Below are positions 4,702-51,178 of a stretch of 64,000 bases of DNA, piece after piece. The DNA lies in NCBI GenBank assembly GCA_047602905.1, contig JBLKOP010000005.1:1241-65240 (forward strand), written 5' to 3'. The position numbers and the translations under genes were made by a program. Within the stretch, counting starts at the first letter, position 1. Every line of letters begins with the position of its first letter. The notes below the pieces were generated by a model. It searched no databases. It was given only the letters and a program-made list of their open reading frames with translations, and was not told where the DNA came from. The stretch comes from Candidatus Woesearchaeota archaeon. Lineage in GTDB: Archaea; Nanobdellota; Nanobdellia; Woesearchaeales; SKIA01.

Positions 4702-4736
4702 TCATTATAAAAACAGGTTTTGTGCTTAGTGGTATT

Positions 4737-14400: not shown

Positions 14401-17400
14401 TTGACCCGCAGTTTGAGAGTGACTATTCCTTTACAAGAACAGCAACTGGTCGTGAACTGCTCAAATGTACTGATTACGACTTCACAAACCAAGAGTGTCT
14501 AGGAAGTTTTGAGCACGTAATGTTCTTAACGCCAGGAGAAAAATACACCGCTACTCTTGATCCGCTAGACCCGCTTTTTGTTGAAGTAAACGATTTAACA
14601 ATCCCTCCGGTAAGCGCTGTTTGTAGCGATGATGATCCTGCGAACTGGGATCCTTCTGTGTGTCAAGGAACCTACACTAACAACCCAACTTGTGGTTCTA
14701 GTGGTGCTCGTATTCTTTGTGATGACGGAGTTGTTGAGTCACTCTCAGGTGGAAGACCAGACGTTTTAGGTGTTGATGCTCGCTACGCTGACGTAACTGT
14801 TGATCCTTCAGAGCAATGCGATAACATCTTGAGTGTTTCTCTTGAGTACCGTTGGAGCAGCCCTACTGGTAACGTAAATAATCGGCGAGTAGAAATAAGT
14901 ACTGAAGATAACCCTACGTGGACAAACCCTACTGGTTGCTCAACAAATTTCGGGCTTCAATCCTGTGACATAACAAGCTATCAGTCTTGGTCGTGCGAGG
15001 ATTTCTTTGGAGAAAACACGCAAACAAGAGCTCGCGCTTATGGATGGAGAAGCACAGGTCCAGGAAGTCACCCTACCACCGTTAACGTTGATTACCTTGT
15101 TTTCGTTGTTGATTACGAGTTTGAAGTACAGCCTTTCACCTCTGATTTCTCCTCCTATAGACAAGGAGCGTTTGCTACGTTTACTGGTGCTAATGTTTGG
15201 GGAGCAAACGAGGATGTGCGCATAAATGTTACGCGTGAAGGATCACTTATTAATCAGCTAGACGTACTTACTGACGCAGAAGGAGAGTTTAGTGTACAGT
15301 ACGAGATTGATAGCTACGCAAACACTGGTTCTTGGAGAGCGGTTGTTTGGCAACTCTCAAATAATAGTATCGTTTACGACCGTAACTTTACTGTTACTCT
15401 AAGAAACCCCTCTGTTGCTCCTGCAAGAACAGGAGGGTATTATAATCGTTCCGAAACAGCTACGTTTATTGGTTCTCAGTGGGCAAACAACGCAACAGTT
15501 CTTGTTACAGCAACTGATCCAGAAAGTAACGAGTTTGTTCTTGACGAAATAAACACCACCACTTCTTCTACTGGACAAATCAGTTATAACTGGTCTGTTC
15601 CTGCTGACCTTAGCTTACTTACTGGTCCTTACACGTTTACGTTTGTTGAAGAAGACAATTCTTCTTTTACTCGACAAACACAAGCACAGATAGTTATTCT
15701 TCCTACTTCTGCTACTCGTTGGGACTCCGTTGACTTGCTTAGCGAAATCTATGCTCTTGACGGAACAGAAGCGGGTGTTACGTACACTGGAAACACTGAT
15801 GGGCGGTTTCTTAACTTAACGTTTCCTGAAACGTTTCCTGAAGACATAGAACTCAACCGTTTTGACTTCGTCTTCTTTTATCGTGAAAGCTCAGGAGCTA
15901 CAGGCCATCACATTCAGTGGTGGGATGGTGCTTCTTGGAGTACTATTTGTACTCCTCCAACAAGCACTTCTCAAACAAATTATACGTGCAGCTTGCTTGG
16001 AGAAGTAGCTAGTGATCCTTCTTTAGCAAACAACGTACAAATTCGTCTTACTGATAACGACGCAACAAGTGGAGGAGCAGGAACTGTTCACACGTACTAC
16101 GTTGACATAGCGTTTTTAGATGTTAACTTCACGTTTCCTCGACCACTAGTTGATTTGCTTTCTCCTGCGAACAACTCTTGGTTTAACTCTACTCAGCACG
16201 AACTCTTTTTTAACGCTTCTAATGAGATGTTTGATATTAGTGAGTGTCGTCTCTATGTTAACGAAGCTCTTGAGTACACAAACGATTCGTTTACTAACCC
16301 AGGAACTGATAGCTATACGCACACCTTCTCTGAAGGAGTGAATACGTGGCGCGCTGAGTGTACAGATGATTCTGCAAGACAACTCGTAGGTGAGTCTGAA
16401 ACAAGAGATATCATCATTGACTTAACGCCTCCCTCAACAACTATTAGCACTCCCACGAATAATTCTTGGTTTAACACTAGCACTCCTAGTATTAATTTCA
16501 CGCTCACTGATAACTTAGCTAACCCAGTTAATTGGAGCGTGTACGTAAATAACTCCCTTGATAACTCAGGTGTAGCTACCAACAACACCGCTTTTACTCA
16601 TACACTTAGTTCTCTTGCTGATGGGTACTACGAAGTTGTTGTTGAGGCTTGGGATCCTGCGTTTAACTACGCAGTAAATGAGTCAATTAACTTGTACGTG
16701 GATACTACTGCTCCCGTTGTTACCTTAAACGACCCTGTTGATACGTTTAATACTTCTTCTACGAGCGTGGAGTTTTCTTGGACGCCAACAGATAACCTCG
16801 CACCAACCCTAAGTTGTGATTTGTTTGTTGATGACGTCTCACAAGGAACGTTTGCAACCCAAAACGGTGTTCAGAACCAAACAACGATTCCTGGTTTTAG
16901 TGACGGAGTCTATAACTGGAGTGTTCTTTGCACAGACATAGCAGGTAACAGCGCTCTTAGTGAAGTTCGCGAATTCACAGTAGACACCACTCCTCCTGTA
17001 GTGCTCTTAGAAGCTCCTCTTAACGAGACGGTCTTTGAGGATACAAGAAACATCCAGCTAGACTACAACGTAACAGACAACTTACTTCCTGTTACTGAGT
17101 GCCGCCTATACATAGATGATGAACTTAACCAAACAAACACTACGATAACGCAGTCAGTTACGCAAAGCTTCTTCTTAACAAACCTTGACCTTGGCGTGTA
17201 CGCGTGGAATGTTGAGTGCGTAGACTTAGTAGGTAACGCAGATAATAGTTCTCAGCAAGAGTTCGAAATCAACCTTACTATGTTTAGTACCTCTCCAGCT
17301 AATGGTTTTGTTGTTGATAGAGATGGCGGAGGAGCTGCTCCTGAATCAATAACGTTTGTAGCTAACGCGAGTGATGAAGAAGCAGGTACCCTTGTTTCTT

Positions 17401-20400
17401 TCTATGCTAGCTTGCTTGAACCAGTCGTTGCTGGCCAAGAAAACCTTCTTTTAGGAACGAACACAACTACTAGTAGCGGGGTTGCTGAGTTCACGTTCAC
17501 ACCAGATAATTCTTACTTTGCAGGAAATTATTCTTGGTTTGCTGCTGCTAATCGCTACTACAACGACACCTCTAATGACTTCATTATTTTAGGAACGCCA
17601 ACTATCTCGTATCAAGACGTGCTTTTTGATCCTAACAACGAGTACAACACCAGCCAGCTTGTTCGCCTAAACGCGACAGTAACGAGTAGTCCAGAATCCG
17701 CTTCTCAACTACAAACCTTGTATGGGTTGTTTGTTAACGCAACACTCACGCAACCAGATAGCACGCAGCACTACGTACCCCTTACCGGAGCAGGCAACCT
17801 CTCAGGAACCTACGCTCTTGCTAGCGACGCACAAATTGGTTTGTGGAGTGCTTTACTAAATACCTCGGCTAGTTGGATGTACCCAAACACTACTTCTCTT
17901 CTCTCAAGAACGTTTACTGTCAAGGGGTTTGCGCACACAATAAGTCCTCCTAACGGAACAGTTGTTGATCGCGACGCAGCAGGTATGGATCCAGAAACTC
18001 TTTCTTTAGTAGTGCAGATTCCTGGAGCGACTGCTGGAGAAACCATTAATTTCACCGCAGACCTCACAGACCCTGCTTTCTCAGGAGAGCAAGGCCTTCT
18101 TCTTGGCACTAACACCACAAACGCTACTGGTCACGCAACGCTTAGCTTCACTCCAACAAGTAGTTTTTACGCGGGTAACTACACGTGGTACGCGGTTAGT
18201 AACGTAAGTTATGTAGGAAACACATCCACTCTTCTTATTAAAGGAGGAGCTCAGCTTGCGCGAGCAAACGTTTCTGAAGAGCCTGCTAGTGAGTACAACC
18301 AGTCAGATACTGTGCAGCTACGCTTTAATATTACGAGCGTAAAAGAAACTCAAGAAGAGCTAGGAATAAATTATTCTTTAGTAACTAACGCTACTCTTCA
18401 ACCAAACACGTCTAGTACTCCTACGTATATCCCAACGTTATCCTTTGATGGTTCTAGCTGGGTGGGAAGCCAAGCTATCGGCCTTACAGACCCTGTTGGT
18501 GTGTGGAGAGTAGTTGCTAATACGAGTGGATTATTTACGTACCAGAACCAAAGTGTTGAGTACTTCTTTACTGTTTTTGGACTAACAAACCTCACAGTAG
18601 ATACTTTTGGTGCTCGCGTGTATGAGCCAGTTACCTTCACAGCGAACTATTCAGACACACTTAACCAACCAATTAATTACTCTCAAACTCTGTGTGAGAT
18701 TCGCTTTGACATCCTTGGAGGATACACCTCGTATGAGAATATGAGTTATGATTCTTCTTCTGGCCTCTTCTGGTTTAGTAGACGCTTTAATGAGACGTAC
18801 ACCGACGCGGAGTATAACATTGCGTGTAACGACCCTCTCTACGAGTTTCAAAACGTTACTGACACATTTACTATTAACAGAACTTTCGCTGATGTACTTA
18901 CTGTTCCTGGCCAAGTAGTTGATAGAGACGCAGCTGGTATTGACTCAGAAACGCTCTTACTTGAAGCAAGTATTGTTGAAGCTCCAGAAGGAGTAAGTAT
19001 AGAGTTTTACACAAACCTTACTGATCCTGTTCTTGGACAAACAGAGGTGTTCTTAGGAGCTAACACTACTGATGCTTCTGGAGTTGCGGTGTATTTGTGG
19101 AACCCTGACGGTACTATTCGTGCAGGAAACCACACGCTCTACGCGAACGCTACTTACGCGGATACAAGAAACGTTTCTGACGCACAAGTATTTGCTGCTC
19201 TTCAATCCGTGTTCACAAACCCTGTAAGTAATCCTGATGCGAACTACACCCAGAACCAAACAGTAACTTTGCACGCTAACGCAACAACAGTGGGTGTGGA
19301 GACTTCTGATCAGCTAAACACGAGCTATGCTCTTAGCTACACAGCATACTTGACAAGCGTGAACGGTCAGGACAGTTCAGCACTTGCGTTTATTAATCCT
19401 CTCTGGCAAGCAAGCTACACTCTTCTTGACCTTGCTGGTGTTGGTGTGTGGAACGTAAGTATAAACGCTTCAGCAAATTATCACTACCCTGATTCAAGTA
19501 CCAAAAACTTTGACGTCTTTGGGTACATGAACGTTACTCATTCATCAATAACTCCTACTGATCACTTCGTGTATGGTTCAGCAGCGCAGACTTGTGTTGT
19601 TCAGGATCAGCACACAGCAGTGCCTGTTGAGGATGCGCAAGTCTTTTTCTACCGAAACGCTACGTTGCTTGGAAGTAACACGACAAACAGCACTGGTCAT
19701 GCTCAGTTTACTTTCCAAACAAATTCTAGCGGCGTCTTTGATGTGTTGTGTGAAGTTGAGGACCAGCTAGGAATCTATTATTTCGCTGGGCAAGCACCTA
19801 ACAGCACTGATTCCTTAACGGTTCTTCCTTTCCCTATCACGCCGATAAGTCCTGCTAATGACACGCTTGTTGATCGGGATGAGACCAACGTTTCTGTGCC
19901 TAACACTCTTGAGCTTGTTGTTGAGGTTCCTAGTTACGTTCCTGACGGCGTATCTATTAATTTCTATAGTAACCTCACAGACCCTCTTAGTGAATCAGCT
20001 GTCTTGCTTGGAAGTAACACGACTAGTTCAGGAACTGCTCGCCTAAACTACAACCCAGCAACTGCTTCCTATGCAGGGCTTCACGAGTGGTACGCGACAA
20101 ACCCTGACGCTACTGTGAATGGAACACGAACGTATGAGAGTATTATGAGTTCAGAAATCGTCTTTACAAACACAACACAAAACCCTAACCTAAACTATAC
20201 TCAGAACGAATCAGTAACTCTGCAAGCAAACCTTACCAGTCTTGGTCCTGAGACGAGAACAGAATTAGCTACGAATTACTCTTCATTACTTAACTTCACC
20301 CTTACTAATCAGAATGGACAAACCATCAGTGTTGCTTTTTACTTTGATCCTCTCTGGCAATCCTCATACACTCTTCTTGACCTTGCTGGTGTTGGTGTGT

Positions 20401-23400
20401 GGAATGTGACTGCAAGTAGCGTTGGTGATTATCAGTTTGACGCAGTTTCTTCTCTAAGAAACTTTACTGTTTATGGTTACATGAACCTCACACAAGCAGT
20501 TCTTGATGCCTCAAGTACTCACGTATACGGCTTGACTACACAAACCTGTACTGTGCAAGACCAGCACACAAATGTCGTTGTTGAGGATGCGCAAGTCTTT
20601 TTCTACCGAAACGCTACTCTTTTAGGTTCTAACACGACAAACGTTTCTGGACAAGCAAGCTTTATTTTCCAAACAAACAACACAGGCGTTTACGATATTT
20701 CTTGTGAAGTAGAGGACCAGCTAGGAATCTATTACTACGCAGGTGACGCTCCTACCGCTACAAACACGCTTACCATAACTCCTTTCCCAATAACACCTAT
20801 AAGTCCCTTAAACGACACCCTTGTTGATCGGGATGAAACTAACGTTTCTGTGCCTAATACTATTGAGTTAGTTGTTCAAGTTCCTAGTTACGTTCCTGAC
20901 GCAGTAACGATTAATTTTAGTAGCTCACTTATTAATCCACTCACCCAAGCACCCACTCTTCTTGGTGCTAACACGACGAGTTCAGGTACTGCTCGCCTAA
21001 ACTACAACCCACAGTCTACTTCTTACGCTGGTTTGTACGTGTGGAACGCTTCCTCAACTAACGGGTTTAGTAACGGTTCACGAACGTATCAATCAATAGG
21101 AACAACAAACACTTCTTTCTTTGATGAAACCCTCTTTCCAGGATTAGTGTATGAACAAAACGATTCAGTAACTCTGCAAGCAAACCTTACGAGTCTTGGT
21201 CCTGAGACGAGAACAGAATTAGCTACGAATTACTCCTCTCTACTCAATTTCACCCTTAGTAGCATAAACGGGGTTAATACGAGCGTAGCAACGTACAACA
21301 ACCCTTTCTGGCAATCCTCCTACTCTCTTCTTGACCTTGCTGGTGTTGGTGTGTGGAACGTAACAGCAACTGCTCAAACAAACTACTTCTTTAACTCTCT
21401 TAGTGAGCAAAGAAACTTTACTGTCTATGGGTTTATGAACCTCTCACAAACGTCTCCAAGCAACCCGCAAGCCTACGAGTTTGTTCCTCACACACAAACC
21501 TGTACTGTACAAGACCAGCACACAGCAGTACCTGTTATGGACGCACAAGTATTTTTTTATCGAAACGCTACGTTCTTAGGAAGTAACACAACAAACAGTT
21601 CTGGACAAGCAAGCGTTACGTTTGCAACAAACACGAGCGGAACTTATAACTTGTTGTGTGAAGTACAAGACCAGCTAGGAATCTACTACTACGCAGGAGA
21701 CGAACCATCCCAAACAACTACGCTTACTGTCGAGCCGTTCTTAGTAACACCAACTAATCCTATAAACGACACTTTAGTTGATAGAGACGGTTTCTTAGTA
21801 ACGCCAAACACCATTACGCTTAACGTGAGTGTCGTTGAAGAAATCCCTGCGGGAATAACGATTTATTTCTACGCAAACCTCACCAACCCATCCATAGCAG
21901 GCCAAGAAGAGCTCCTGCTAGGAACTAACACCACAACAAGTAATAACTGGGCTGCGCTAACGTACAACCCTAACAGCACTACGTATCTTGGAGAATACGT
22001 TTGGTGGGCTCAAGGAGGAGCGAGAGGAGCAAACGGTACACGAACCTTTACGCAACTAGGCTCTATGAACGTCACGTTTGCAAACAGCACGATAAACCCA
22101 GACGCTGAGTACGACAAACCAATCAACGTCACTATAGACGCTCTTTTGCAGAGTTACGGCCCTGAAACGAACACGCAATTATCTTCTTTGTACGCAGCAG
22201 CCACGAACAACACGTTCGTCATCCCTAACGGAACTAACCAAACAATCTCTCTTATGTACAACACCGTTAATTGGAGTGGCGAGTACGAGATACAAACGCC
22301 TGATACGAGAGGGTGGTGGTTTGCGCAACTAAACGCAACAGCAAACTACTTCGCTCTCGTGGACGCAGCAAGCAGAAGCTTCTTTGTAAATAACTTCCCA
22401 CCAACGCACACAACACCAATTCTTAACGCGAGTGACCACCCACAAAACTACACGACAGCAAACCTCACGGTTCATCCACAAAACGTCTTTGACGCAGAAG
22501 GAGACTTTGTCACGAACATGACTGATTGGAGAATAGCTAATCAGAGCGTCGCCGTACTCAACCTTCCTTTCCTGAGCAAAACAAATAGCACAGCAGCAGG
22601 TGCTGTTCGTGACTACACCACTTATGAGCACAACGCAACACTAGACTCAAGTGGAGTAAACCCTACGCCTACATACATAGATTCGTGTATCGTTGGTGGG
22701 TGTTACTTCTTTGATAACAACGAGTACATAGACACAACACTAACTCTTAACCCTGCAAGTACGAGCTTTACAATTAGTCTTTGGGCTCGCGTAGAAAGCC
22801 TTCCAAGCACGCTAGGAAGCAGCGTTCCTATCGTTCAGCAAGAAGACGGTACAGGAGTGGGAAGAACACTTGTAGGCCTAAGTAACAACGATGATGGTTG
22901 GTATAGCTTCTATGGAGGCGTGTTTCAGGATAGCGGAGTAGTACCTGCACTAAGTCAGTGGTATCACGTAGTGTACACGTACGATTTACCTTCAGAAACC
23001 CTTACGTTTTACATAGACGCAAATGATATTTACAGCGACCAAGCAGACCCAGAAGTAGCTGATGGTATCTGGACGCTAGCAAGACATAAGAGCGGAGCGA
23101 ATTACTATCACGGATACCTTGATCACGTACTCGTACTTGATAGAGCACTAAGTCAAGAACAAATCGCTCAGATACGCGAGGACGGACTAGCAGGAAAACC
23201 ACCAACGACCATCGTCTCAGAAGAAACAAATAAAGAAGAGGTGTGGAGCGCGTGCCTTACTCCTAATGACGGCCTTGATGACGCAGTTACTCTGTGCAGC
23301 AATGAAGTACGAATCAGAGGACTTCTAGAAGCAATCAACCCAGCTAATGACACAGTAGTTGATAGAGACGCTACAGGGCAAGGAAACGAGACTATCAACC

Positions 23401-24602
23401 TCACTGCATCAACGTTTGGTGACGCAGGAATTAACGTAAGCTTCTTTGCAGACTTAACAGACCCTCTTTACGCAGGACAAAACAATCTTCTTGTAGGATA
23501 CGCAGTTAGTAACGCAACAGGTTTTGCAACCCTCTCTTATAACCCAAACAGTTCAATTTATGCAGGTAACTATACTTGGCGCCCAGAGGAGACAAATAGT
23601 ACTACACTTAATAACAGAACCTATCTTGTTTATGGAAGTCTGCAAGCAAGTTACAACAGTACCGCTCACCCAAACAGCACGTATAACCAAACACAAACAG
23701 CGCTCTTTACACTTAACCTTACTTCTCCAGGTCCAGAAACGCCTCTTGATATTAACAACACACAGGACTTCCTCTTCGAGCAAATACTCACTCTTCCTAA
23801 CGCTACAAACGCCACGCTAACAACTACTTTTACTAATCCACACCACACAAGCAACTATACCTTTAGCGCCACAGAAACCGTTGGTGTGTGGAATACGAGC
23901 GTGTTTGCAAGCGCTCGTTTCTTCTACTCTTTAGAAGAACAACTGCGTACCTTCACGCTACGAGGAGTAAGCACTCTGGAGGTCTTTGACGAGCAAGACA
24001 TTATTCCACGAACAGTCTGGACTGGTGAAGAAGTGCTGCACTTTGCTAACTGGACGCATCTAGACGCTACTCCTGTAGATACAGGTACGTGTACATTAAC
24101 TCTTTGGAATAACACGCAGATACCGATGAGTTATAACTCCTCAAACGAGTTATGGGTTGCGAATCACAGCTATGAGTTCGCAGGGATATTCCGTTACAAC
24201 GCTACGTGTACAAGACCGTTTTACTACGACGTTTTCGACAACAATAACATCAGCATAGCAACGAACGTGAGCTTAGTAGCTAACTACTCCTCACAAGTCC
24301 TTAGCGATGCTCTACGAGAAGTAACGCTAAGGGTAACAAACCTTCGCGGGCACGTAGAAGGAAACGTAACGCTGTACACAGTACTTCACCCCTCACTAAC
24401 ACCAAGCTACAACACAGCTCCTACCGCTACACAAAGCATTACTGGAGAGTACGCAGGAGAAATTCTTGAGTGGTACTTTGCTAACATCACTGGCTTTGCA
24501 ACTCAAGAAATTGTCTTTAACGTAACAGGAGCAGGAAACTATCAAAACGACTTTGTTATTGGTGTGCGCACGCCGCCGGTAAGCGGGGAGGTGTTTGGAT
24601 GA
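11496..24602 (+). CDS. giant secreted surface protein (4368 aa) with Ig-like, prealbumin-like and LamG-like domains
   Basis: - Uninterrupted 13.1-kb ORF.
- N-terminal signal peptide MKRLLLLLLVFTLLPAALGVSGA.
- Four ~95-aa Ig-like repeats ending in D(L/T)T(P/A)P(x)(V/T) at nt ~16140-17280.
- Seven copies of a P.N.T.VDRD...LTDP...LLG.NTT..G.A.L.(F/Y).P....YAGxYxW module.
- LamG/concanavalin-like region at nt ~22600-23200 (ISLWARVE...WYHVVYTYD...FYIDAN...GYLDHVLVLDRALSQEQI).
- Cys-rich region at nt ~14600-15060.
- N-x-S/T sequons every few residues over most of the length. Confidence 0.9.
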   Translation: MKRLLLLLLVFTLLPAALGVSGAEVFIQAPTTALPGETVAVSIEAQIQGVRVISFPLEVTLIYPDQTTTTLPIQPDGQGLLTTTAYTPLQGVYELRAQASFADTQVQATHEIRVQPPPLQANITRSNDTFFFNATEEYTFNIYPLLLQAGPITQQEPVCTVTCTSCELVCAVNNAFITAQGQYRYTQILAPTSTQILTTGQSIDTQELFLLREEALIALPSKTSFVQDQTLITPEGVLEIRVLDEEELSTLPEAYSILDGQWYVRSTQPLTALNHTILAAWSLQGELLEHTTNTLQTSTGFEARIQRTGSAQLPVVTHTEHGVLVNNLTQLLRLPATATPISLSQEPELLVSRDEQGHLVYYAQEDHVLIPANLTNNTVLYARTFEPIKLPVTNASKTTILNEELEVVLAQEGTLTQWTPRVQPGRYFVLAQQEQPAVQVVDVLPAGELITSPNNNTYAAQPNTQLVIKREVRNTDTQPRTINVQLTGDSRAVLYANNKQLTDTNLNGVLDTGILRPGEAITLSAHVFIAAQQQDQTLKWTFSTPQASITRSDEIRIASESSFIQVDDVEVAQITASQASIEVVINNYDVQERVETIRLTYQTREGEDAEQFSVALPAGSSTHTFTTPPNTYQVRAELLVTDQNPSNDYRLLRFNEESGLLVHVNEYQNRAHEAFTVKVQAPLGAYQAFIPASNGSLLQVPTATLSQQARTQDLLVQLPLEKNTDVQLVLIPGEERTFNPYLILDNRDATTKGSWFSASQVPGFYGPDYLNDLNERKGDKEVVYSPVSTARYEVEIHHPGDSSFASNTRVLLGEDTVLVNQKVPSSWRYLGRYELGVDNPIIITNAASNGVVVADAFRLVRVDQYATIAQESIVTTARRGIIFDSRGREVAAQVSLREDGRDVRAGLLPRQAQANNRNYEILFEFEDEAVDNLRVHNANPSAMGLGLERVPVARAQQFTARSVVDSFAIDPQFESDYSFTRTATGRELLKCTDYDFTNQECLGSFEHVMFLTPGEKYTATLDPLDPLFVEVNDLTIPPVSAVCSDDDPANWDPSVCQGTYTNNPTCGSSGARILCDDGVVESLSGGRPDVLGVDARYADVTVDPSEQCDNILSVSLEYRWSSPTGNVNNRRVEISTEDNPTWTNPTGCSTNFGLQSCDITSYQSWSCEDFFGENTQTRARAYGWRSTGPGSHPTTVNVDYLVFVVDYEFEVQPFTSDFSSYRQGAFATFTGANVWGANEDVRINVTREGSLINQLDVLTDAEGEFSVQYEIDSYANTGSWRAVVWQLSNNSIVYDRNFTVTLRNPSVAPARTGGYYNRSETATFIGSQWANNATVLVTATDPESNEFVLDEINTTTSSTGQISYNWSVPADLSLLTGPYTFTFVEEDNSSFTRQTQAQIVILPTSATRWDSVDLLSEIYALDGTEAGVTYTGNTDGRFLNLTFPETFPEDIELNRFDFVFFYRESSGATGHHIQWWDGASWSTICTPPTSTSQTNYTCSLLGEVASDPSLANNVQIRLTDNDATSGGAGTVHTYYVDIAFLDVNFTFPRPLVDLLSPANNSWFNSTQHELFFNASNEMFDISECRLYVNEALEYTNDSFTNPGTDSYTHTFSEGVNTWRAECTDDSARQLVGESETRDIIIDLTPPSTTISTPTNNSWFNTSTPSINFTLTDNLANPVNWSVYVNNSLDNSGVATNNTAFTHTLSSLADGYYEVVVEAWDPAFNYAVNESINLYVDTTAPVVTLNDPVDTFNTSSTSVEFSWTPTDNLAPTLSCDLFVDDVSQGTFATQNGVQNQTTIPGFSDGVYNWSVLCTDIAGNSALSEVREFTVDTTPPVVLLEAPLNETVFEDTRNIQLDYNVTDNLLPVTECRLYIDDELNQTNTTITQSVTQSFFLTNLDLGVYAWNVECVDLVGNADNSSQQEFEINLTMFSTSPANGFVVDRDGGGAAPESITFVANASDEEAGTLVSFYASLLEPVVAGQENLLLGTNTTTSSGVAEFTFTPDNSYFAGNYSWFAAANRYYNDTSNDFIILGTPTISYQDVLFDPNNEYNTSQLVRLNATVTSSPESASQLQTLYGLFVNATLTQPDSTQHYVPLTGAGNLSGTYALASDAQIGLWSALLNTSASWMYPNTTSLLSRTFTVKGFAHTISPPNGTVVDRDAAGMDPETLSLVVQIPGATAGETINFTADLTDPAFSGEQGLLLGTNTTNATGHATLSFTPTSSFYAGNYTWYAVSNVSYVGNTSTLLIKGGAQLARANVSEEPASEYNQSDTVQLRFNITSVKETQEELGINYSLVTNATLQPNTSSTPTYIPTLSFDGSSWVGSQAIGLTDPVGVWRVVANTSGLFTYQNQSVEYFFTVFGLTNLTVDTFGARVYEPVTFTANYSDTLNQPINYSQTLCEIRFDILGGYTSYENMSYDSSSGLFWFSRRFNETYTDAEYNIACNDPLYEFQNVTDTFTINRTFADVLTVPGQVVDRDAAGIDSETLLLEASIVEAPEGVSIEFYTNLTDPVLGQTEVFLGANTTDASGVAVYLWNPDGTIRAGNHTLYANATYADTRNVSDAQVFAALQSVFTNPVSNPDANYTQNQTVTLHANATTVGVETSDQLNTSYALSYTAYLTSVNGQDSSALAFINPLWQASYTLLDLAGVGVWNVSINASANYHYPDSSTKNFDVFGYMNVTHSSITPTDHFVYGSAAQTCVVQDQHTAVPVEDAQVFFYRNATLLGSNTTNSTGHAQFTFQTNSSGVFDVLCEVEDQLGIYYFAGQAPNSTDSLTVLPFPITPISPANDTLVDRDETNVSVPNTLELVVEVPSYVPDGVSINFYSNLTDPLSESAVLLGSNTTSSGTARLNYNPATASYAGLHEWYATNPDATVNGTRTYESIMSSEIVFTNTTQNPNLNYTQNESVTLQANLTSLGPETRTELATNYSSLLNFTLTNQNGQTISVAFYFDPLWQSSYTLLDLAGVGVWNVTASSVGDYQFDAVSSLRNFTVYGYMNLTQAVLDASSTHVYGLTTQTCTVQDQHTNVVVEDAQVFFYRNATLLGSNTTNVSGQASFIFQTNNTGVYDISCEVEDQLGIYYYAGDAPTATNTLTITPFPITPISPLNDTLVDRDETNVSVPNTIELVVQVPSYVPDAVTINFSSSLINPLTQAPTLLGANTTSSGTARLNYNPQSTSYAGLYVWNASSTNGFSNGSRTYQSIGTTNTSFFDETLFPGLVYEQNDSVTLQANLTSLGPETRTELATNYSSLLNFTLSSINGVNTSVATYNNPFWQSSYSLLDLAGVGVWNVTATAQTNYFFNSLSEQRNFTVYGFMNLSQTSPSNPQAYEFVPHTQTCTVQDQHTAVPVMDAQVFFYRNATFLGSNTTNSSGQASVTFATNTSGTYNLLCEVQDQLGIYYYAGDEPSQTTTLTVEPFLVTPTNPINDTLVDRDGFLVTPNTITLNVSVVEEIPAGITIYFYANLTNPSIAGQEELLLGTNTTTSNNWAALTYNPNSTTYLGEYVWWAQGGARGANGTRTFTQLGSMNVTFANSTINPDAEYDKPINVTIDALLQSYGPETNTQLSSLYAAATNNTFVIPNGTNQTISLMYNTVNWSGEYEIQTPDTRGWWFAQLNATANYFALVDAASRSFFVNNFPPTHTTPILNASDHPQNYTTANLTVHPQNVFDAEGDFVTNMTDWRIANQSVAVLNLPFLSKTNSTAAGAVRDYTTYEHNATLDSSGVNPTPTYIDSCIVGGCYFFDNNEYIDTTLTLNPASTSFTISLWARVESLPSTLGSSVPIVQQEDGTGVGRTLVGLSNNDDGWYSFYGGVFQDSGVVPALSQWYHVVYTYDLPSETLTFYIDANDIYSDQADPEVADGIWTLARHKSGANYYHGYLDHVLVLDRALSQEQIAQIREDGLAGKPPTTIVSEETNKEEVWSACLTPNDGLDDAVTLCSNEVRIRGLLEAINPANDTVVDRDATGQGNETINLTASTFGDAGINVSFFADLTDPLYAGQNNLLVGYAVSNATGFATLSYNPNSSIYAGNYTWRPEETNSTTLNNRTYLVYGSLQASYNSTAHPNSTYNQTQTALFTLNLTSPGPETPLDINNTQDFLFEQILTLPNATNATLTTTFTNPHHTSNYTFSATETVGVWNTSVFASARFFYSLEEQLRTFTLRGVSTLEVFDEQDIIPRTVWTGEEVLHFANWTHLDATPVDTGTCTLTLWNNTQIPMSYNSSNELWVANHSYEFAGIFRYNATCTRPFYYDVFDNNNISIATNVSLVANYSSQVLSDALREVTLRVTNLRGHVEGNVTLYTVLHPSLTPSYNTAPTATQSITGEYAGEILEWYFANITGFATQEIVFNVTGAGNYQNDFVIGVRTPPVSGEVFG
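17280..22390 (+). repeat. intragenic tandem array of ~950-bp three-domain supermodules (youngest copies 19826-20780, 20781-21732, 21733-~22390)
   Basis: Exact shared tracts:
- ACACTCTTCTTGACCTTGCTGGTGTTGGTGTGTGGAA at 19417 and 20368, with its last 34 nt (CTCTTCTTGACC...) also at 21325.
- GTTGAGGATGCGCAAGTCTTTTTCTACCGAAACGCTAC at 19626 and 20580.
- A ~70-nt tract with 2 mismatches at 20208 and 21162.
Periods are 951 and 954 nt. Confidence 0.9.
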
Positions 24603-45706: not shown

Positions 45707-47455
45707 GTGGGGATAATGAAATTTTCGTATAGTGACGCACTACTTCAGGCACGAACGTACAATATTGAGTTATTATTGAAATCATTCATCACCGCTGATT
45801 CACGAATAAAAAACTCCTCTCTTCCCTTCTGGAAGCAAGAATTACTCGCACAAAGTACTTCTTGGAAGAAACACAACGCTTTTGTTAATGAGCCACTAAA
45901 AAAAGTTGGTGATCCCATAAGTTTTGTGATGCAAGCACAAGAAGTTCCTGTAATAGAAGCAGTTAAGTACGTATTACGTCAGCAAGGTTACGACGCAGAA
46001 ATAGTTTTTAATCCTCCTATTGATCAATCTCCCTATGAAGTGCTTGTTCACGCACAGAAATTTTTTCTTTCACACCAAGAAGAAGCAATCGCGTATTTCT
46101 CTAACAAAAGAAGAACCTCTGCTGACGTAGTACAACAATGGGGTGTTGGTTTTGCGAAGAGAAACAACGAGTTGGTTAATGAGTTGTTTGAAGAATTTTC
46201 TTCTCAAACAATAGCTGCTTCAGGAATTATAGGCACTCAAGCAAGATCTGTTGACGAAATGTCCGCAAGTAATTCGTATTGCTCATTAGTTGATCGAGTA
46301 ACGTTTCCCATCAAGGACTTACAAGGGAGGATAATTGGTTTTAGCGGACGACTCGTTTCTGAGAGTACTAAGCGACCAAAGTATAAGAACTCTTCTTCAC
46401 AAGTAGCGAACCAACCAACAATTTTTAGTCGCTCTAATTCCTTCTTTGGTCTTTACGAAGCAAAACAACGCATTCAAGAAACAGGAGTTGTGTACGTAAC
46501 AGAAGGATACACCGATGTTATGTCCGCAAGCACTACTCTTCCAAACGTAGTCGCTGCTCTTGGAACAGGAATTACTTCTTCACAACTAAAAACGCTCTCA
46601 GAACTAGCGAAAACAGTTGTTTTTGTCATGGATGGAGATGCTGCAGGAAGACTTTCTGCTCGTAAATATGCTAGCATAGCTCTTGAGTACGGAATAAACC
46701 CAGAAGTAGTTCTTCTTCCTATTCAGGAAAATAAAAAAGATCAAGAAGATATAGATTCTTTAGTAAGAAAAGGAACTCCTGCTTCTCAGATCGTAGATGC
46801 TTTCTCTGTTCCCATAGGGGAGTTGTTTCTTGAAGACATCATAAACCCTTCACACATAGATTTACTTCCCATAGTTAAAGAAGTAATTGCTAATTCTTCT
46901 CAAGCAACTTCCTCACACCCAATTATTGATTCATTGTATCAAGTATCTGGATTGCCTCCTGTTAGTGAAGAGCTTATTGAGCAACTACTTGCTAAACAAG
47001 CAAGTCCTTTTCAACAAGCAGCTGCTCGTTACGTATCAGCAATGTTTAGTACTTCTTCAAAAAAAGCAATCACGTATTTTGAAGACCTCCCGTGCACTCA
47101 TGAGTTTTTTCCAGAAGAACTACGATCAGCGTATTGCGCTCTTCAAGAAGCGTATATGAATGGAGTAATATCTTCTGTCGTTCCTTTACACAAACAAGAG
47201 CCAGACCATCCTGATCTTTTTGCTCCTGAAGAGATATCCTCAAGTATTACTAGCTTACAACAAACAATGAATGAGCCATCAGTTCCTTTGTATCTACGTC
47301 AAGAACTTGCTCGCCCAGCCAAACGCAACGTTTCTAAAGAGCATATATTTATTAATGAATTTATCGAGTTCTTTACTCGGGAGAAGATGTATTCTCGTTT
47401 ACAACAAGCAGATAGTACTTTTACAAAGGAGATTTTTGATACGTATGTCTCTTGA
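45707..47455 (+). CDS. bacterial-type DnaG-like primase (RNA-polymerase core plus TOPRIM), zinc-binding ligands absent
   Basis: VDRVTFPIKDLQGRIIGFSGR, PKYKNSSS...IFSRSNSFFGLYEA, TOPRIM VYVTEGYTDVMS and VFVMDGDAAGRLSA. The N-terminal region keeps GDPISFVMQAQEVPVIEAVKYV but carries no Cys/His ligands. GTG start; an ATG lies at 45716. Confidence 0.75.
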   Translation: MGIMKFSYSDALLQARTYNIELLLKSFITADSRIKNSSLPFWKQELLAQSTSWKKHNAFVNEPLKKVGDPISFVMQAQEVPVIEAVKYVLRQQGYDAEIVFNPPIDQSPYEVLVHAQKFFLSHQEEAIAYFSNKRRTSADVVQQWGVGFAKRNNELVNELFEEFSSQTIAASGIIGTQARSVDEMSASNSYCSLVDRVTFPIKDLQGRIIGFSGRLVSESTKRPKYKNSSSQVANQPTIFSRSNSFFGLYEAKQRIQETGVVYVTEGYTDVMSASTTLPNVVAALGTGITSSQLKTLSELAKTVVFVMDGDAAGRLSARKYASIALEYGINPEVVLLPIQENKKDQEDIDSLVRKGTPASQIVDAFSVPIGELFLEDIINPSHIDLLPIVKEVIANSSQATSSHPIIDSLYQVSGLPPVSEELIEQLLAKQASPFQQAAARYVSAMFSTSSKKAITYFEDLPCTHEFFPEELRSAYCALQEAYMNGVISSVVPLHKQEPDHPDLFAPEEISSSITSLQQTMNEPSVPLYLRQELARPAKRNVSKEHIFINEFIEFFTREKMYSRLQQADSTFTKEIFDTYVS

Positions 47456-49559
47456 GAAATACCTTGAGATGGATCTTGATGAGATAAACCCTCTTCAGTG
47501 GTCTACTAGAAAAAGATATTTGAAGCCTTTAGCAGAGATTATTAAAGAAGTAAGCCAAGTTGCTAAAAACGTTTCTGAGCCGTTATCAAAAAAGTCTTTT
47601 CGTGCAGTAACGTACCGGCAGCTATGCATGTGGTCTTTTGTTATGTATGGAGAATCAAATCCTGCTTGGCTTGTTGAAGACATGGGTTTTGAGTATTTTT
47701 CAAAAAAAGTTCTTCCGTATAACAAAATGCAATCTTATATTAAGAAACGATTTACTCGAGAACAAGCAGAACAAGCATACACAGGTTCTTTAGTTGGAAA
47801 GATGACGCAAACAGTTTTTGACTTAAGCGATCATAAGTCTAAAAGAATTCATAAACGCGTTACACGAGAAGGAGGTGGTTATATGGCTGAATTCATTAAT
47901 TCGTTATACCCTGATCTTCAACAAAAACATGGTTTTTCTTTGTATGATGCGTTCATAAACGGGTATTCAGGAAACATGGAGGATATTGATGTGCTACTTA
48001 CTGAACGGCACTTCTCAGGAGCTTCTATGTTTGAGCGCTCGCTACGAAAAGATGGGTTGTCATACGTAGTATCTGCTCTTATGAAAACTTCTGATAACGA
48101 ATTATTTCCTAAAACCTTCTCTCAAGCACTCTTTGAGCGATTAGGTTATGACGTTTCTGCTGATAGGTTTCATCAAAACTCACAGGACGCTCAGAACGGG
48201 TTATCAGAGAAACTTGGTATTTCTTCAACAAGAAACATTGTTTCTTTAGCTGGTGAGCGCTACGCCACGCTGCTTTTTTCTCTTCTGCAAAGAAATCCTT
48301 TCGCATCTGCTAGTATCCCTGAAGCGCTGCGCTCAGGGTTTTCTTTAGTTGCTTCTGAGCGCGATAAACAATTGCTTGTTCAAGTAAACGAGTTATTTTC
48401 TGAGGATAAACAGTTAGTAGCTGATAATAGGGTGGTCACAAGTAATGGTTCTTCTGTGCTTGTAGAGACAAAGACGCTCTCAAACGGATATTATAATGTA
48501 GGCACAAAAATTATTGATAAGTACGCTTCGAGTACTCACTGGGCTGATGGGACTCCTATTGACCAAAAACTTGCAGTTTTTCATGCTAACGGGTTTGCTT
48601 CTGAAGCAGAAGAAGAATTAAAAAAAAATGGTTGGCAAGTGTTTTCTGGCAACCAATTTCATGACGTTCTTGGAGAATTAATTCATAAAGAAGAAGGTTT
48701 TCTTGATAGACTATCTGTTCCTTTAACTTCTCTTGATGATTTATTGCTTGGACACGAAATAGTTAATAAACGCTCTCACCTCTTATACCGACGCCCTCAT
48801 AAGCTATTGCGCGAATGGATGGTGGATATGCTTGAGAAGAATATTTCTTCTCTTGGTGCTTCCGAAAAAACGTATTTTTCTCGAAACATTCCTTTTGAAA
48901 CAGTTACTTCTGTTCGCGAGTTTGAAGGAGTGTATGACTTATCTTCTTTTATTAAGCCTAATCAACCAACTGTCTATTTTGATTTAGAAACGCCTGGTTT
49001 TCTCTCAGAAGGAGTTCCTATTGGTATTGCTGGTGTTGCGTACTGGCAGGGTGATGAGCTTGTTGCTAAGCAGTTTCTTGCACGAACTCCTCTGGAGGAG
49101 ACTCGTTTGCTTAATGAGTTAGAAAAAATTTTTTCTCAGGCCAAACGAGTAGTGACGTTTAATGGGGAGCGCTTTGATAATCCTTTCTATAACTCTCGTG
49201 CGTGGCATAATCTTGTTCGTTCAAAAATCGTTTCTTCTCAATCAGTTGATCGTATGCAAATTTTTAAGCATGAGCGAGGAATTTTTTATGATCAAGGATA
49301 CCGTTTACAGGATTATGAGCGAGAACACATCGGTCTTGTTCGTTCAGAAGTATTTAAGGAGCAGGATATTCGTTCAAGTGACATCCCTCCTGTGTTTAAG
49401 AACTATTGGTATGGTGGTCCAGAAAGCGGGGTTCTTCGTGTGCTGCTTCATAACCAGCTAGATGTGTTTTCTACTGCGATGATTGATTCAACGTATTTGT
49501 TAAGAAAACCTTCTTCTGTTATTCCTACTTTTCCTTTCGAAGAAAAAGCTCCTTTCTAG
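47445..49559 (+). CDS. large hypothetical protein (704 aa) with C-terminal RNase-H-fold (YprB-like) exonuclease domain
   Basis: C-terminal VYFDLETPGF, VVTFNGERFDNPF and LLHNQLDVFSTA (DEDD-like spacing). Possible PD-(D/E)XK signature D...VLVETK mid-protein. ATG 47445 overlaps the primase stop by 11 nt; the tracked 47271 extension reads as low-complexity junk. Confidence 0.6.
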   Translation: MSLEKYLEMDLDEINPLQWSTRKRYLKPLAEIIKEVSQVAKNVSEPLSKKSFRAVTYRQLCMWSFVMYGESNPAWLVEDMGFEYFSKKVLPYNKMQSYIKKRFTREQAEQAYTGSLVGKMTQTVFDLSDHKSKRIHKRVTREGGGYMAEFINSLYPDLQQKHGFSLYDAFINGYSGNMEDIDVLLTERHFSGASMFERSLRKDGLSYVVSALMKTSDNELFPKTFSQALFERLGYDVSADRFHQNSQDAQNGLSEKLGISSTRNIVSLAGERYATLLFSLLQRNPFASASIPEALRSGFSLVASERDKQLLVQVNELFSEDKQLVADNRVVTSNGSSVLVETKTLSNGYYNVGTKIIDKYASSTHWADGTPIDQKLAVFHANGFASEAEEELKKNGWQVFSGNQFHDVLGELIHKEEGFLDRLSVPLTSLDDLLLGHEIVNKRSHLLYRRPHKLLREWMVDMLEKNISSLGASEKTYFSRNIPFETVTSVREFEGVYDLSSFIKPNQPTVYFDLETPGFLSEGVPIGIAGVAYWQGDELVAKQFLARTPLEETRLLNELEKIFSQAKRVVTFNGERFDNPFYNSRAWHNLVRSKIVSSQSVDRMQIFKHERGIFYDQGYRLQDYEREHIGLVRSEVFKEQDIRSSDIPPVFKNYWYGGPESGVLRVLLHNQLDVFSTAMIDSTYLLRKPSSVIPTFPFEEKAPF

Positions 49560-49571
49560 AACTAGTTGAAA

Positions 49572-49592
49572 TGGGCTCAGAGGGATTTGAAC
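49572..49592. repeat. 21-nt direct repeat of the tRNA-Lys 3' end (att-like)
   Basis: TGGGCTCAGAGGGATTTGAAC is identical to 50307-50327. Identity stops exactly at both edges, and the flanking sequence cannot form a T-stem. Confidence 0.9.
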
Positions 49593-49622
49593 TGCAAGTT
49601 ATTTGTACAGAGTAATTGCTTC

Positions 49623-49632
49623 CACTGGACAT
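49623..49632 (+). promoter_or_regulatory. CACTGGACAT box (mini-ORB-like), copy 3, upstream of the LAGLIDADG gene
   Basis: Exact 10-mer. The reverse complement reads TGTCCAGTGGAAGC. The A/T box AAAAGTATTT (49642-49651) ends 25 nt before ATG 49677. Confidence 0.55.
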
Positions 49633-49676
49633 TTACGACCGAAAAGTATTTGTTGCATTCTTACTGTTTTTTTTAT

Positions 49677-50345
49677 ATGAAACCAACTGTTGAGTTTTGC
49701 GAGTTATACGGTGCTATGCTGGGTGATGGTTGTGTTGGTGTATATCAGTACGGAACCAAGAAACCTGTTTTTGTTGTGATGTTAACTGGTTCGATGTATG
49801 ACCGTGATTATTATGTGTTCAAAATTATTCCGATACTTAATAAGTTGTTTGGAGACTGTTTTCAATTGCGAAAGAAATCAAATGCACATGCGTTGTTGCT
49901 TCGTTCATATCAAAAAAAACCGTATATGTGTTTACGTAAGTTTGGGTTTCCTAGTGGCAAGAAATACAATCTCATAATTCCTCCTTGTTTCTATAAGGAC
50001 AAAAAATGGGTTATTGCATGTATTCGAGGAATATTTGATACTGATGGTTCAGTATATTTGCGATACTCGAAGAAATATAAGAACCATGCTAAGCATTACT
50101 TGTACATGAACGTCCAGTTTAAGATGACATCGCCGTTCTTATTGCGTCAAATCAAGGTATTTCTTACAGGAATAGGTATTTGCTGTAATAACAGATATAC
50201 TGAGGGTACTTCAACAGTACTTAGAATTACTAATCAGAAGTCAGTTCATCGTTTCTTTGAGATAATAAAACCAAGTAATTTTCATCATCAGAGAAGATAT
50301 TGGTACTGGGCTCAGAGGGATTTGAACCCCCGACCTACCGGTTAA
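49677..50345 (+). CDS. LAGLIDADG homing endonuclease (double-motif)
   Basis: LYGAMLGDGCVG and IRGIFDTDGSVY motifs ~100 aa apart. The 3' end runs 39 nt antisense into the tRNA-Lys gene. The tracked start at 49566 lies inside the upstream repeat. Confidence 0.85.
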   Translation: MKPTVEFCELYGAMLGDGCVGVYQYGTKKPVFVVMLTGSMYDRDYYVFKIIPILNKLFGDCFQLRKKSNAHALLLRSYQKKPYMCLRKFGFPSGKKYNLIIPPCFYKDKKWVIACIRGIFDTDGSVYLRYSKKYKNHAKHYLYMNVQFKMTSPFLLRQIKVFLTGIGICCNNRYTEGTSTVLRITNQKSVHRFFEIIKPSNFHHQRRYWYWAQRDLNPRPTG

Positions 50346-50381
50346 GAGCCGGCCGCTCTTGCCAGACTGAGCTATGAGCCC
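50307..50381 (-). tRNA. tRNA-Lys (anticodon CUU), intron-less, no encoded CCA
   Basis: The reverse complement GGGCTCATAGCTCAGTCTGGCAAGAGCGGCCGGCTCTTAACCGGTAGGTCGGGGGTTCAAATCCCTCTGAGCCCA folds as a cloverleaf: 7-bp acceptor, GCTC/GAGC D-stem, 5-bp anticodon stem, loop CTCTTAA, T-arm GGGGG-TTCAAAT-CCCTC. Confidence 0.9.
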
Positions 50382-50416
50382 GTAAGTACTTAATGATTTA
50401 TGAATTCTTTAAAAGA

Positions 50417-51178
50417 CTATGCTGCTTTGTGTAATTTTTTGTTTTCGTATTCACAAAGTTTCTCTACTGTTTTTCTTGATCGTAAACTCCCTTTTTTCTT
50501 TAGTGATTCAAATCCTTGCAAAAGTGCAAATCTATCTAAACTGTTTATGAGTGGGCTGCTTGCTTTGACATATGCAGGGACTCCTAAATACTCATATCTT
50601 CCTGGTTCTGCTTGGTATTTTATTATTTCTCCTTCACTTATTTTAAATGGTAAATAAATTCCTTTTTGTCGTGCGTAATTCGCAAATAAGCAGTTAAATA
50701 CGTTCATTGCTCTGTTTACTGCGTCTTCTTCGTGTTTTGCTCTTGTGCTTCTTATTAGTTCTTCAGAAAACCATCGAGGAGTTGTTGTTGGAGTCACTGC
50801 TGTGCTATTAATGAATCCGTGGCTAACGCTTGGTTGTTCTATGTTGTATCCATCAGTAAAGTATTGTATAAGAAAAACCTCTTTTCTCTCTCCGTTTAAG
50901 CTGTATTGTTTTTTTGTTCCTGAAAAAGAGTTTTTGTGAGTGTAAGGGAGTTTTTTTGTTATGAATTCTGTGTGATTACTGATGCCGCTTATAGCTATTG
51001 AGAGCTTATACCAGTCTGCGTTAAGTCTTTGAATTCCTAATGCGTCATCGTGATTGTATGTTTTGTTGTTATCAATTGCAAAAAACGGTATTTGGGGCTG
51101 TTGAATATTGACTGTTGTCTCAATATTTAGTAAAGAGAGTCTCTCGTATGAAAAGTTGCTTCTCTCCCGTTGCTGCAT
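50417..51178 (-). CDS. short, degenerate RNase II/R (RNB)-like protein
   Basis: FAIDNNKTYNHDDALGIQ (RNB motif I, (I)D-x6-D-x-DDA, with one Asp replaced by Asn), KLSIAISGISNH (motif II) and YLGVPAYVKASSPLINSLDRFALLQ (motif IV TSPIRRY.DL, both Arg lost). Only 253 aa. Confidence 0.5.
   Translation of the reverse strand: MQQRERSNFSYERLSLLNIETTVNIQQPQIPFFAIDNNKTYNHDDALGIQRLNADWYKLSIAISGISNHTEFITKKLPYTHKNSFSGTKKQYSLNGERKEVFLIQYFTDGYNIEQPSVSHGFINSTAVTPTTTPRWFSEELIRSTRAKHEEDAVNRAMNVFNCLFANYARQKGIYLPFKISEGEIIKYQAEPGRYEYLGVPAYVKASSPLINSLDRFALLQGFESLKKKGSLRSRKTVEKLCEYENKKLHKAA

Follow-up and report, generated by a model that had tools for sequence, protein, structure and literature searches.

How does a LAGLIDADG homing endonuclease gene come to lie, outside any intron or intein, against an intact tRNA gene whose 3'-end is repeated exactly on the far side of the endonuclease gene? 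The question is raised by a stretch of 64,000 nucleotides from a Candidatus Woesearchaeota archaeon (GenBank assembly GCA_047602905.1, contig JBLKOP010000005.1, positions 1,241–65,240 of the forward strand), which was analysed as a whole and is here called the window. In it, the endonuclease gene is located between a tRNA-Lys(CUU) gene and a short copy of the 3'-end of that tRNA, to which we refer as the stub. [quoted passage not shown] This answer draws on the close linkage of related genes to the same tRNA, on stubs of other lengths and origins beside some of these relatives, and on gene-free alleles of the locus in syntenic genomes.

Organization of the locus

The 21-mer TGGGCTCAGAGGGATTTGAAC is present in exactly two copies in the window, at 49572–49592 and 50307–50327. 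The copies are 735 nucleotides apart, start to start, with 714 base pairs (49593–50306) between them. A third copy was sought across the 64 kb allowing up to three mismatches and none was found, with 0 expected from 100 shuffles. The downstream copy corresponds to positions 53–73 of tRNA-Lys(CUU), comprising the T-loop, the 3'-strand of the T-stem, the 3'-strand of the acceptor stem and the discriminator. From left to right, the locus contains the following features:

49572–49592, minus strand: the stub or relic, an exact 21-nucleotide copy of tRNA-Lys(CUU) positions 53–73 (from the sequence)
49623–49631, plus strand: a CACTGGACA box, 46 nucleotides before the ATG, with a core like that of an origin-recognition box (ORB), TCCAGTG, on the other strand
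49642–49651, plus strand: TATA-like aaaagtattt, putative promoter of the endonuclease gene (from the sequence)
49677–50345, plus strand: gene for a 222-residue monomeric double-motif LAGLIDADG endonuclease, with ATG at 49677 and TAA at 50343–50345 (Pfam, family alignment, AlphaFold)
50307–50381, minus strand: tRNA-Lys(CUU), intact, intron-less, 75 nucleotides (ARAGORN; Rfam tRNA, 70.1 bits)
50407–50415, minus strand: TATA-like cttttaaag, putative tRNA promoter, about 26 nucleotides upstream of the tRNA 5'-end

The stub begins 12 nucleotides past the stop codon of an upstream open reading frame (ORF) of 762 codons. ARAGORN and Rfam detect no RNA gene there, and as the upstream copy has no 5'-partner for its T-stem strand, it cannot fold as a T-arm and is not a functional RNA. 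Over positions 1–64000 the two programs detect a single tRNA gene; in relatives, ARAGORN missed or misnamed tRNAs that are interrupted, and the window may therefore hold more tRNA genes with introns. The D-loop of the window tRNA is GGCAAGAGC, one nucleotide longer than in three gene-free relatives when the syntenic tRNAs are aligned. A tttaaaag run matching the putative tRNA promoter is also found in the flank of the sister locus, L011, which has an endonuclease gene 81% identical to that of the window.

An earlier note on this DNA, made from the letters alone, had reported the exact 21-nucleotide repeat of the tRNA 3'-end at these two sites, a cassette containing only a double-motif LAGLIDADG ORF on the strand opposite to the tRNA, and a stop codon 39 nucleotides inside the tRNA. 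The window-wide search confirms the repeat, the 714 base pairs hold one ORF, and its TAA is where the note had placed it. A functional second RNA gene at 49572–49592, which the note had named as a possible refutation, is not what the stub is.

The endonuclease

The 222-residue protein matches the Pfam families LAGLIDADG_3 (3.7e-9, 37.1 bits with a cut-off of 22.5) and LAGLIDADG_1 (8.3e-6), both above their cut-offs. The two LAGLIDADG motifs are YGAMLGDG (with D17) and IRGIFDTDG (with D123). In an alignment of 29 relatives, residues G16, D17, G18, D123 and G124 are unchanging, both catalytic acidic residues among them. The AlphaFold2 model (pLDDT 91.3, pTM 0.89) contains two alpha-beta-beta-alpha-beta-beta-alpha domains that form a DNA-binding saddle, followed by a tail of low confidence, and the fold is borne out by Foldseek, whose top matches are I-Tsp061I (1e-10), E-DreI, PI-PfuI and I-DmoI, with query-normalised TM-scores of 0.6–0.7. 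A profile search of the PDB recovers the same enzymes. Sequence identity to the solved enzymes is just 16–20%. I-Tsp061I is an archaeal intron-encoded enzyme, PI-PfuI an intein enzyme and E-DreI a chimera of I-DmoI and I-CreI. With both domains and both motifs intact in sequence and model, the protein looks like a working LAGLIDADG homing endonuclease.

The conserved core of the protein ends in RRYWY (at about 50304), where the tRNA gene starts. The last 13 codons run into the tRNA antisense and reach a stop 39 nucleotides within the tRNA gene, antisense to the anticodon loop (TTAAGAG). The 13-residue tail they encode is unconserved among relatives and of low confidence in the model, which points to read-through as far as the first stop in the G+C-rich antisense strand, that of the anticodon loop. 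Judged by alignment and model, the overlap of the carboxy-terminus with the tRNA is incidental. The idea of an endless ORF on a 735-nucleotide circle (no stop interrupts the frame from 49566 on, and the repeats are 245 codons apart) was rejected as a coincidence, because the open stretch spans the promoter and because other stub-bearing loci, for instance L025, do not keep the frame. No RNA contig covering the locus was found in three metatranscriptome runs of the same study.

A family linked to tRNA genes

A protein search gave about 35 relatives of 210–240 residues from Woesearchaeota, Aenigmatarchaeota and metagenome contigs. Scans of one genome per species and of metagenomes of the Joint Genome Institute (JGI) added 155 further loci; the species-level scan, which covered 185,579 genomes of bacteria and archaea, gave 75 loci. 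For the relatives, ARAGORN was replaced by Rfam and a custom intron-tolerant search for the acceptor stem and T-arm, with the anticodon-loop motif [C/U]UCUUA as a crude marker for tRNA-Lys(CUU). Of 63 distinct loci in the close family, 52 have the 3'-end of the endonuclease ORF in contact with a tRNA whose anticodon loop is of the CUU type. The 63 loci are arranged as follows:

tRNA on the same strand, its 5'-end at the ORF stop: 38 of 63 loci (37 with the CUU-type motif, one without a recognised loop motif)
tRNA antisense, with its 3'-end at the stop codon of the ORF (the layout of the window): 11 of 63 loci (all with the CUU-type motif)
tRNA spanning the ORF: 4 of 63 loci (all with the CUU-type motif)
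no tRNA detected: 10 of 63 loci (in at least four, the contig ends at this point; L037 is truncated at its 5'-end)

Every context that was read among the relatives from the protein search has a tRNA at the 3'-end of the ORF, and the linkage to one tRNA holds over protein identities of 25–45%. Distant subfamilies adjoin tRNA-Ile(GAU), tRNA-Phe(GAA), tRNA-Thr(CGU), tRNA-Pro(UGG), tRNA-Arg(CCU) and tRNA-Val(GAC). Loci beside tRNA-Ile(GAU) or tRNA-Phe(GAA) are L161, L163, L168, L171, L173–L177 and L180; L075, L079, L086, L090 and L167; and L055, L083 and L093. In the last three, which are crenarchaeal, the gene is located inside a tRNA-Phe intron; in Desulfurococcales and Culexmicrobium contigs, the tRNA-Phe intron that holds the gene is closed by a long helix. 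From these positions, each endonuclease sublineage appears to be bound to one tRNA species. The earlier note had proposed a search for the same cassette at other tRNA genes; close relatives are found at tRNA-Lys(CUU) and distant ones at other tRNAs. A viral origin of the family was considered and rejected, as a search of viral contigs (IMG/VR) gave just two weak matches. A full-text literature search for LAGLIDADG genes located within archaeal tRNA genes or next to them gave no report, and the family is apparently an undescribed, tRNA-dedicated LAGLIDADG lineage of DPANN archaea.

In a neighbour-joining tree, the antisense layouts fall in at least six separate positions and the intron-borne forms are nested among the free-standing ones. 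On this tree, which is weak, the layouts interconvert, and either state, intron-borne or free-standing, may be ancestral. A change of orientation is seen when L158 (692–1547) is compared with its close relative L162 (1477–2295): these loci share an upstream zinc-ribbon (TFS-like) gene and the endonuclease gene, while the same intron-bearing tRNA-Lys gene has opposite orientation in the two, without a stub. The tRNA, which has inverted repeats (the acceptor stem) at its ends, has here been cleanly flipped.

Stubs in relatives

Stubs were sought in the 450 nucleotides upstream of each free-standing ORF, as copies of the tRNA end that abuts the ORF; shuffled controls gave 10 or less. The following were found:

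window stub: 21 of 21 nucleotides, tRNA 3'-end
L025 stub: 22 of 24 nucleotides, tRNA 3'-end
L131 stub: 13 of 14 nucleotides, tRNA 3'-end
L016 stub: 18 of 19 nucleotides, tRNA 5'-end
L110 stub: 15 of 15 nucleotides, tRNA 5'-end
L159 stub: about 38 nucleotides, intron-less, tRNA 3'-end

At least six independent loci thus have the gene flanked by a stub of 14–38 nucleotides, copied from either end of the tRNA, and in the sister locus L011 a decayed stub is present at the place of the window stub. In L025 and L159, stub and adjacent tRNA are distinguished by compensatory changes in the T-stem and acceptor stem. Such changes indicate that the stub derives from a second, functional allele of tRNA-Lys, as is characteristic of an event that involved two genomes.

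L159 (1263–2175) has a fourth layout, in which a complete tRNA-Lys(CUU) with introns is followed by a pseudogene with an in-frame TAA and then by the stub. One of its tRNA introns is apparently located in the T-loop (read by eye). This locus had been a candidate for the intron type, which was rejected once the complete tRNA, the pseudogene and the 3'-stub were recognised. The degeneration of its gene fits the usual life cycle of homing endonuclease genes. A further candidate stub, at L154, turned out to be a complete second gene, tRNA-Lys(UUU).

Empty sites

Empty sites were found by using the neighbouring 2-hydroxyacid dehydrogenase gene as an anchor. In L100, L102 and L104 the dehydrogenase is 60–65% identical, and a tRNA-Lys(CUU) gene is present on the same strand, in the same synteny with an HMA ATPase gene. 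These three loci were checked for a LAGLIDADG gene, for a remnant of one and for a second copy of the tRNA end, and contain none of them. The endonuclease gene, present in the window and in L011, is absent from three of the five syntenic loci, that is, it occurs sporadically at a conserved site that is empty in relatives. The earlier note had suggested a search for empty sites in related genomes, and had considered that relatives in which the repeat exists without any insertion would argue against its proposal; the three gene-free loci provide the former and show no case of the latter. When JGI metagenome contigs were scanned for the exact pattern of this tRNA, there were no matches.

Both gene-bearing tRNAs, of the window and of L011, have a D-loop that is one nucleotide longer than that of the empty alleles, exactly at the site where other members of the family have an intron. 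The two represent a single lineage. That the longer D-loop is a resistant allele may be suggested on this basis, and suggested only: L141, in which an ordinary intron-less tRNA stands beside the gene, is a counter-example to immunity through the D-loop.

Introns in the tRNA genes

In three loci (L023, L123 and L127) the ORF fills an intron of 668–674 nucleotides in the D-arm of tRNA-Lys(CUU), at position 22/23. These introns are bounded by a bulge-helix-bulge with a four-base-pair helix (UGGU/RCCA) and three-nucleotide bulges (AGA and AAA). The inner helix covaries, with its sequence varying and its pairing kept. The predicted cut, after the second bulge nucleotide, gives GGUAG|AGC and thereby a normal D-stem. 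Thirteen of the 19 D-arm-interrupted tRNAs next to genes of the family pass a strict bulge-helix-bulge test, and ten of these 13 have introns of only 21–36 nucleotides, without an ORF, at the same 22/23 site beside free-standing genes. A second recurrent type of mini-intron, ending in GGUGAAR, is common in the other tRNAs; as read by eye, it apparently interrupts the anticodon stem immediately ahead of the loop. The tRNAs beside the gene in the window, in L011 and in L141 are intron-less. The gene of the window is not an intron-borne member: the 75-nucleotide tRNA is uninterrupted, with the ORF outside it and on the opposite strand.

At L154 (1260–2293) the endonuclease gene is located between tRNA-Lys(UUU) and tRNA-Lys(CUU), both of which have homologous ORF-less mini-introns at 22/23, indicating that the intron spread between lysine isoacceptors. 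ARAGORN names tRNA-Lys(CUU) genes with an intron, non-canonical or canonical, tRNA-Val(tac) or tRNA-Stop(tta) (L016, 3685–3781; L100, 2487–2583), an annotation trap for DPANN genomes. Because tRNA finders miscall interrupted genes in this way, tRNA-Lys(CUU) may be under-annotated in these genomes.

Promoter box and flanking genes

The CACTGGACA box before the endonuclease gene has identical copies at 1126–1134, before a RecQ/UvrD-like helicase gene (1181–3157), and at 4684–4692, before an Orc1/Cdc6-like gene (4722–5804). The box precedes a TATA-like run by about 10–14 nucleotides, and the geometry of box, TATA-like run and start codon is alike in all three promoters. Its core, TCCAGTG, matches archaeal origin-recognition boxes. 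Enrichment within the window is modest (three matches, with 1.0 expected). Upstream of the ORFs of relatives, the box is present on the coding strand in 27 of 125 loci, versus 2 of 125 on the other strand; in the same survey, no intron-type locus has it. The earlier note had already remarked on a mini-ORB-like box in the cassette promoter.

From the box and the TATA-like architecture, the endonuclease gene has a putative promoter of its own, with a host-type box common to the Orc1/Cdc6 and helicase genes. In its position, between genes and next to a conserved putative target gene, it resembles a free-standing homing gene. Binding of Orc1/Cdc6 to the CACTGGACA box is offered as a hypothesis only. 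The shared arrangement suggests that the three boxed promoters might be a small replication-linked regulon, joined by a selfish gene.

Between a disulphide isomerase gene and the stub, the window contains a two-gene module of 3.9 kb (45707–49559) that is absent from L011. The first gene encodes a DnaG primase of bacterial or phage type (phrog_6444, 1e-49) and the second a protein of 704/762 residues with a PolB-exonuclease-like RNase_H_2 domain, for which no homologue was found among 5.8 billion proteins at E ≤ 1e-10. As listed, the two ORFs overlap by about 185 nucleotides; public gene calls start the second one later. The module ends 12 nucleotides before the stub, has no copy of the repeat at its far edge and does not differ in composition from its neighbours. 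Further left, the order of tRNA methyltransferase, adenylate kinase and disulphide isomerase genes is common to the window and L011 and partly to L104. The idea that the left flank differs in every relative was therefore wrong: this synteny is conserved, and the window just has an extra module. Either the module landed next to the stub, or L011 lost it along with the left portion of its own stub.

On the other side of the tRNA, positions 50417–51178 of the minus strand encode a 253-residue protein whose match to the beginning of the RNB exoribonuclease domain is only weak and below threshold. This protein is conserved beside the dehydrogenase gene in L100 and missing in L011. Elsewhere in the window, a single plus-strand ORF of 4368 codons (11496–24602) encodes a giant protein, such as DPANN archaea commonly have.

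Origin of the tRNA-endonuclease-stub arrangement

Insertion by double-strand-break repair would have proceeded as follows. The endonuclease would cut gene-free alleles of tRNA-Lys(CUU), and the break would be repaired from a gene-bearing copy, for which the conserved tRNA itself would provide the homology. If the far flank lacks homology, copying could run from the tRNA through the gene and be completed by joining to the broken tRNA end of the recipient. The product would contain the complete tRNA and the gene, and what is left of the resident tRNA end would form the stub; the 21-nucleotide repeat of the window would be such a junction scar. Once present, the stub could serve as a second, portable homology arm, which would make tRNA, gene and stub a self-contained homing unit. 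Repair of this kind predicts stubs of variable length that belong to the allele of the recipient, as seen in L025 and L159. The novel tRNA-targeted mode of homing that the earlier note had put forward agrees with the tie of the gene to tRNA-Lys(CUU), but the repeat is not a constant target-site duplication and most relatives have none. A wider proposal joins two statements, namely that the locus is a homing unit free of intron and intein, with tRNA and stub as its two homology arms, and that the family plants non-canonical bulge-helix-bulge introns in archaeal tRNA genes; that both hold together is a tentative thought, which we consider rather unlikely.

Several observations weigh against insertion by repair. 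The absence of a stub from most relatives means that it is not needed for persistence. The end-points of the stubs vary (tRNA positions 1–15 or 1–19 at the 5'-end; from 35, 49, 53 or 60 to 73 at the 3'-end) and miss the intron site at 22/23, so that no single cleavage site is mapped by them, and as the window stub is identical to its tRNA, donor and recipient cannot be told apart there. In the source population no empty or excised form was found, lake-water metagenome contigs (contigs only, which makes this a weak negative) all showing the filled site and no joints. The flip between L158 and L162, without a stub, means that rearrangements other than homing also shape these loci. On the weak neighbour-joining tree, evolution may have gone from intron-borne to free-standing or the reverse, and a lineage-specific 3.9-kb module, itself unexplained, abuts the stub.

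Direct repeats of a tRNA 3'-end are the classic signature of integrase-mediated integration, and a minimal remnant of a tRNA-integrating element was the other explanation offered by the earlier note. The locus would then be the remains of a virus or plasmid of the SSV or pNOB8 type, with the repeats as attL and attR and all but the endonuclease gene since deleted, or a mini-element moved in trans by an integrase from another locus. The exact 21-nucleotide direct repeat has the form of such sites, foreign-allele stubs like those of L025 and L159 would also be expected of a tRNA end carried on attP, and the module directly beyond the window stub, with its DnaG-type primase and orphan 704-residue protein, is lineage-specific. 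A comparable combination of tRNA fragment and recombinase element is found in Caldiarchaeum (PMC3293823). However, no integrase or recombinase domain is present in any ORF at 40–56 kb of the window, in agreement with the note's own remark that an integrase is missing, or in the gene calls around the cassettes of relatives. The far side of the module has no third att copy, and the family is nearly absent from viral contigs. More than 50 loci are tied to the same tRNA, in both orientations, and include copies at its 5'-end with 5'-stubs (L016 and L110) and copies in D-arm introns. Integration at a 3'-att site does not produce copies at the 5'-end or inside introns, and an integrase remnant is, all told, very improbable.

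A different possibility is that the protein has been domesticated and has a cellular task at tRNA-Lys, as a WhiA-like regulator or a maturase-like factor, in which case the gene would be immobile and the repeat an old scar. The persistence of the link to a single tRNA over 25–45% protein identity would fit this, as would the host-type promoter box; WhiA appears at rank 29 in the fold search, and one public source labels a relative as a DNA-binding transcriptional regulator. Domestication is nevertheless unlikely: both catalytic acidic residues are invariant, which derivatives of the WhiA type, by contrast, do not keep; three of five syntenic relatives lack the gene, as do most archaeal species (the 75 loci in 185,579 bacterial and archaeal genomes); at least one copy is a pseudogene (L159); and foreign-allele stubs indicate transfer. 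The repeat might also be the by-product of a local rearrangement unrelated to homing, through insertion or deletion of the module or a slippage duplication, kept exact by gene conversion from the tRNA 735 nucleotides away. The stub stands exactly where synteny with L011 resumes after the module, and the tRNA region is prone to rearrangement, as seen in the L158/L162 flip and the variable neighbours. When the window is compared with L011, the non-coding DNA of the cassette has an identity of only 73%, and an exact stub within it speaks for conversion or a recent event. Yet L011 has its decayed stub at the same place and no module, so that the stub predates the module or is independent of it. 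Stubs also recur beside the family in at least five other, unrelated contexts and are missing from the three gene-free syntenic loci, which makes a local rearrangement a poor candidate.

Comparison with known homing systems

Among characterised enzymes, the closest counterparts are I-DmoI, I-Tsp061I and I-PorI, encoded in archaeal rRNA introns. Like the window protein they are monomeric, have two motifs and comprise about 200 residues, and I-DmoI and I-Tsp061I are among its best structural and profile matches. Three relatives (L023, L123 and L127) are likewise located in a bulge-helix-bulge intron of a gene for a stable RNA. Unlike in the rRNA systems, the host gene is a tRNA gene, and the window copy is outside any intron, antisense, with a putative promoter of its own and a flanking stub. 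The archaeal group I introns with such ORFs are all found in rRNA (PMC6125680), a survey from 2015 assigns the homing genes to rRNA introns (PMC4496867), and homing goes unmentioned in a comprehensive review on introns of tRNAs (PMC4090602).

[quoted passage not shown] SegB is also encoded by a free-standing gene among or next to tRNA genes, but it is a GIY-YIG enzyme of bacteriophages without preference for one tRNA isotype, whereas the present family is LAGLIDADG, resides in cellular archaea and keeps to one tRNA species per sublineage. The window protein has neither a GIY-YIG nor an HNH fold, and its resemblance to SegB is functional and positional, not one of homology. In collaborative homing, which Zeng, Bonocora and Shub are said to have described in 2009 for cyanophage psbA and F-CphI, a free-standing endonuclease gene reportedly lies beside an ORF-less intron. 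Many same-strand relatives similarly pair a free-standing gene with an ORF-less mini-intron, at a site that bears the ORF elsewhere. The introns here are protein-spliced, of the bulge-helix-bulge type, and not group I ribozymes, and the window tRNA is intron-less.

The atp6 element of Allomyces reportedly results in a hybrid gene, an outcome matched by the foreign-allele stubs of L025 and L159. In the fungal mitochondrial genes atp6 and cob, an intact gene is followed by one or more endonuclease ORFs and then by a leftover terminal fragment of the same gene (PMC6279837). This is the same layout as in the window, with the difference that the fungal targets are protein-coding and need their frame healed, while the target here is a 75-nucleotide RNA gene of which 14–38 nucleotides, from either end, are duplicated. 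Precedents of this kind qualify the statement in the earlier note that LAGLIDADG genes do not normally travel as free cassettes: the family does have intron-borne members, with ORFs of about 670 nucleotides, and free-standing homing genes and partial duplications of their targets are known elsewhere. For tRNA-Thr(GGU) of Caldiarchaeum, a tRNA fragment is located upstream of the complete, intron-bearing tRNA, with an inserted element between them, and the authors proposed that tRNA introns, and split tRNAs, arise in this way (Sugahara et al. 2012, PMC3293823). There, too, an inserted element parts a tRNA fragment from the complete tRNA; the insert differs in being 1.8 kb long, multi-copy and equipped with a DNA recombinase, whereas a single-copy homing endonuclease gene is present here.

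Implications

It has long been asked how archaeal tRNA genes come to be split and to have introns in unusual places, and the proposals invoke an unknown intron transposition or integrating elements. In the family described here, one endonuclease lineage is found in three states: in a canonical tRNA intron, beside an ORF-less intron, and beside an intron-less tRNA with a duplicated end. With this family, tRNA genes join the places where archaeal LAGLIDADG enzymes are known to reside, and it may offer natural meganucleases with predictable targets in tRNA genes. If tRNA and stub do act as two homology arms, the unit could enter any genome with a similar tRNA-Lys(CUU), whatever its flanks, and the target gene would be kept intact by duplication instead of by splicing of RNA or protein. 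If the family does plant the introns as well, it would shuttle between free-standing and intron-borne forms, and the mini-introns of 21–36 nucleotides at position 22/23 would be its ORF-less footprints. With its three states, the family is a concrete and testable agent for the gain of introns and the scattering of tRNA fragments.

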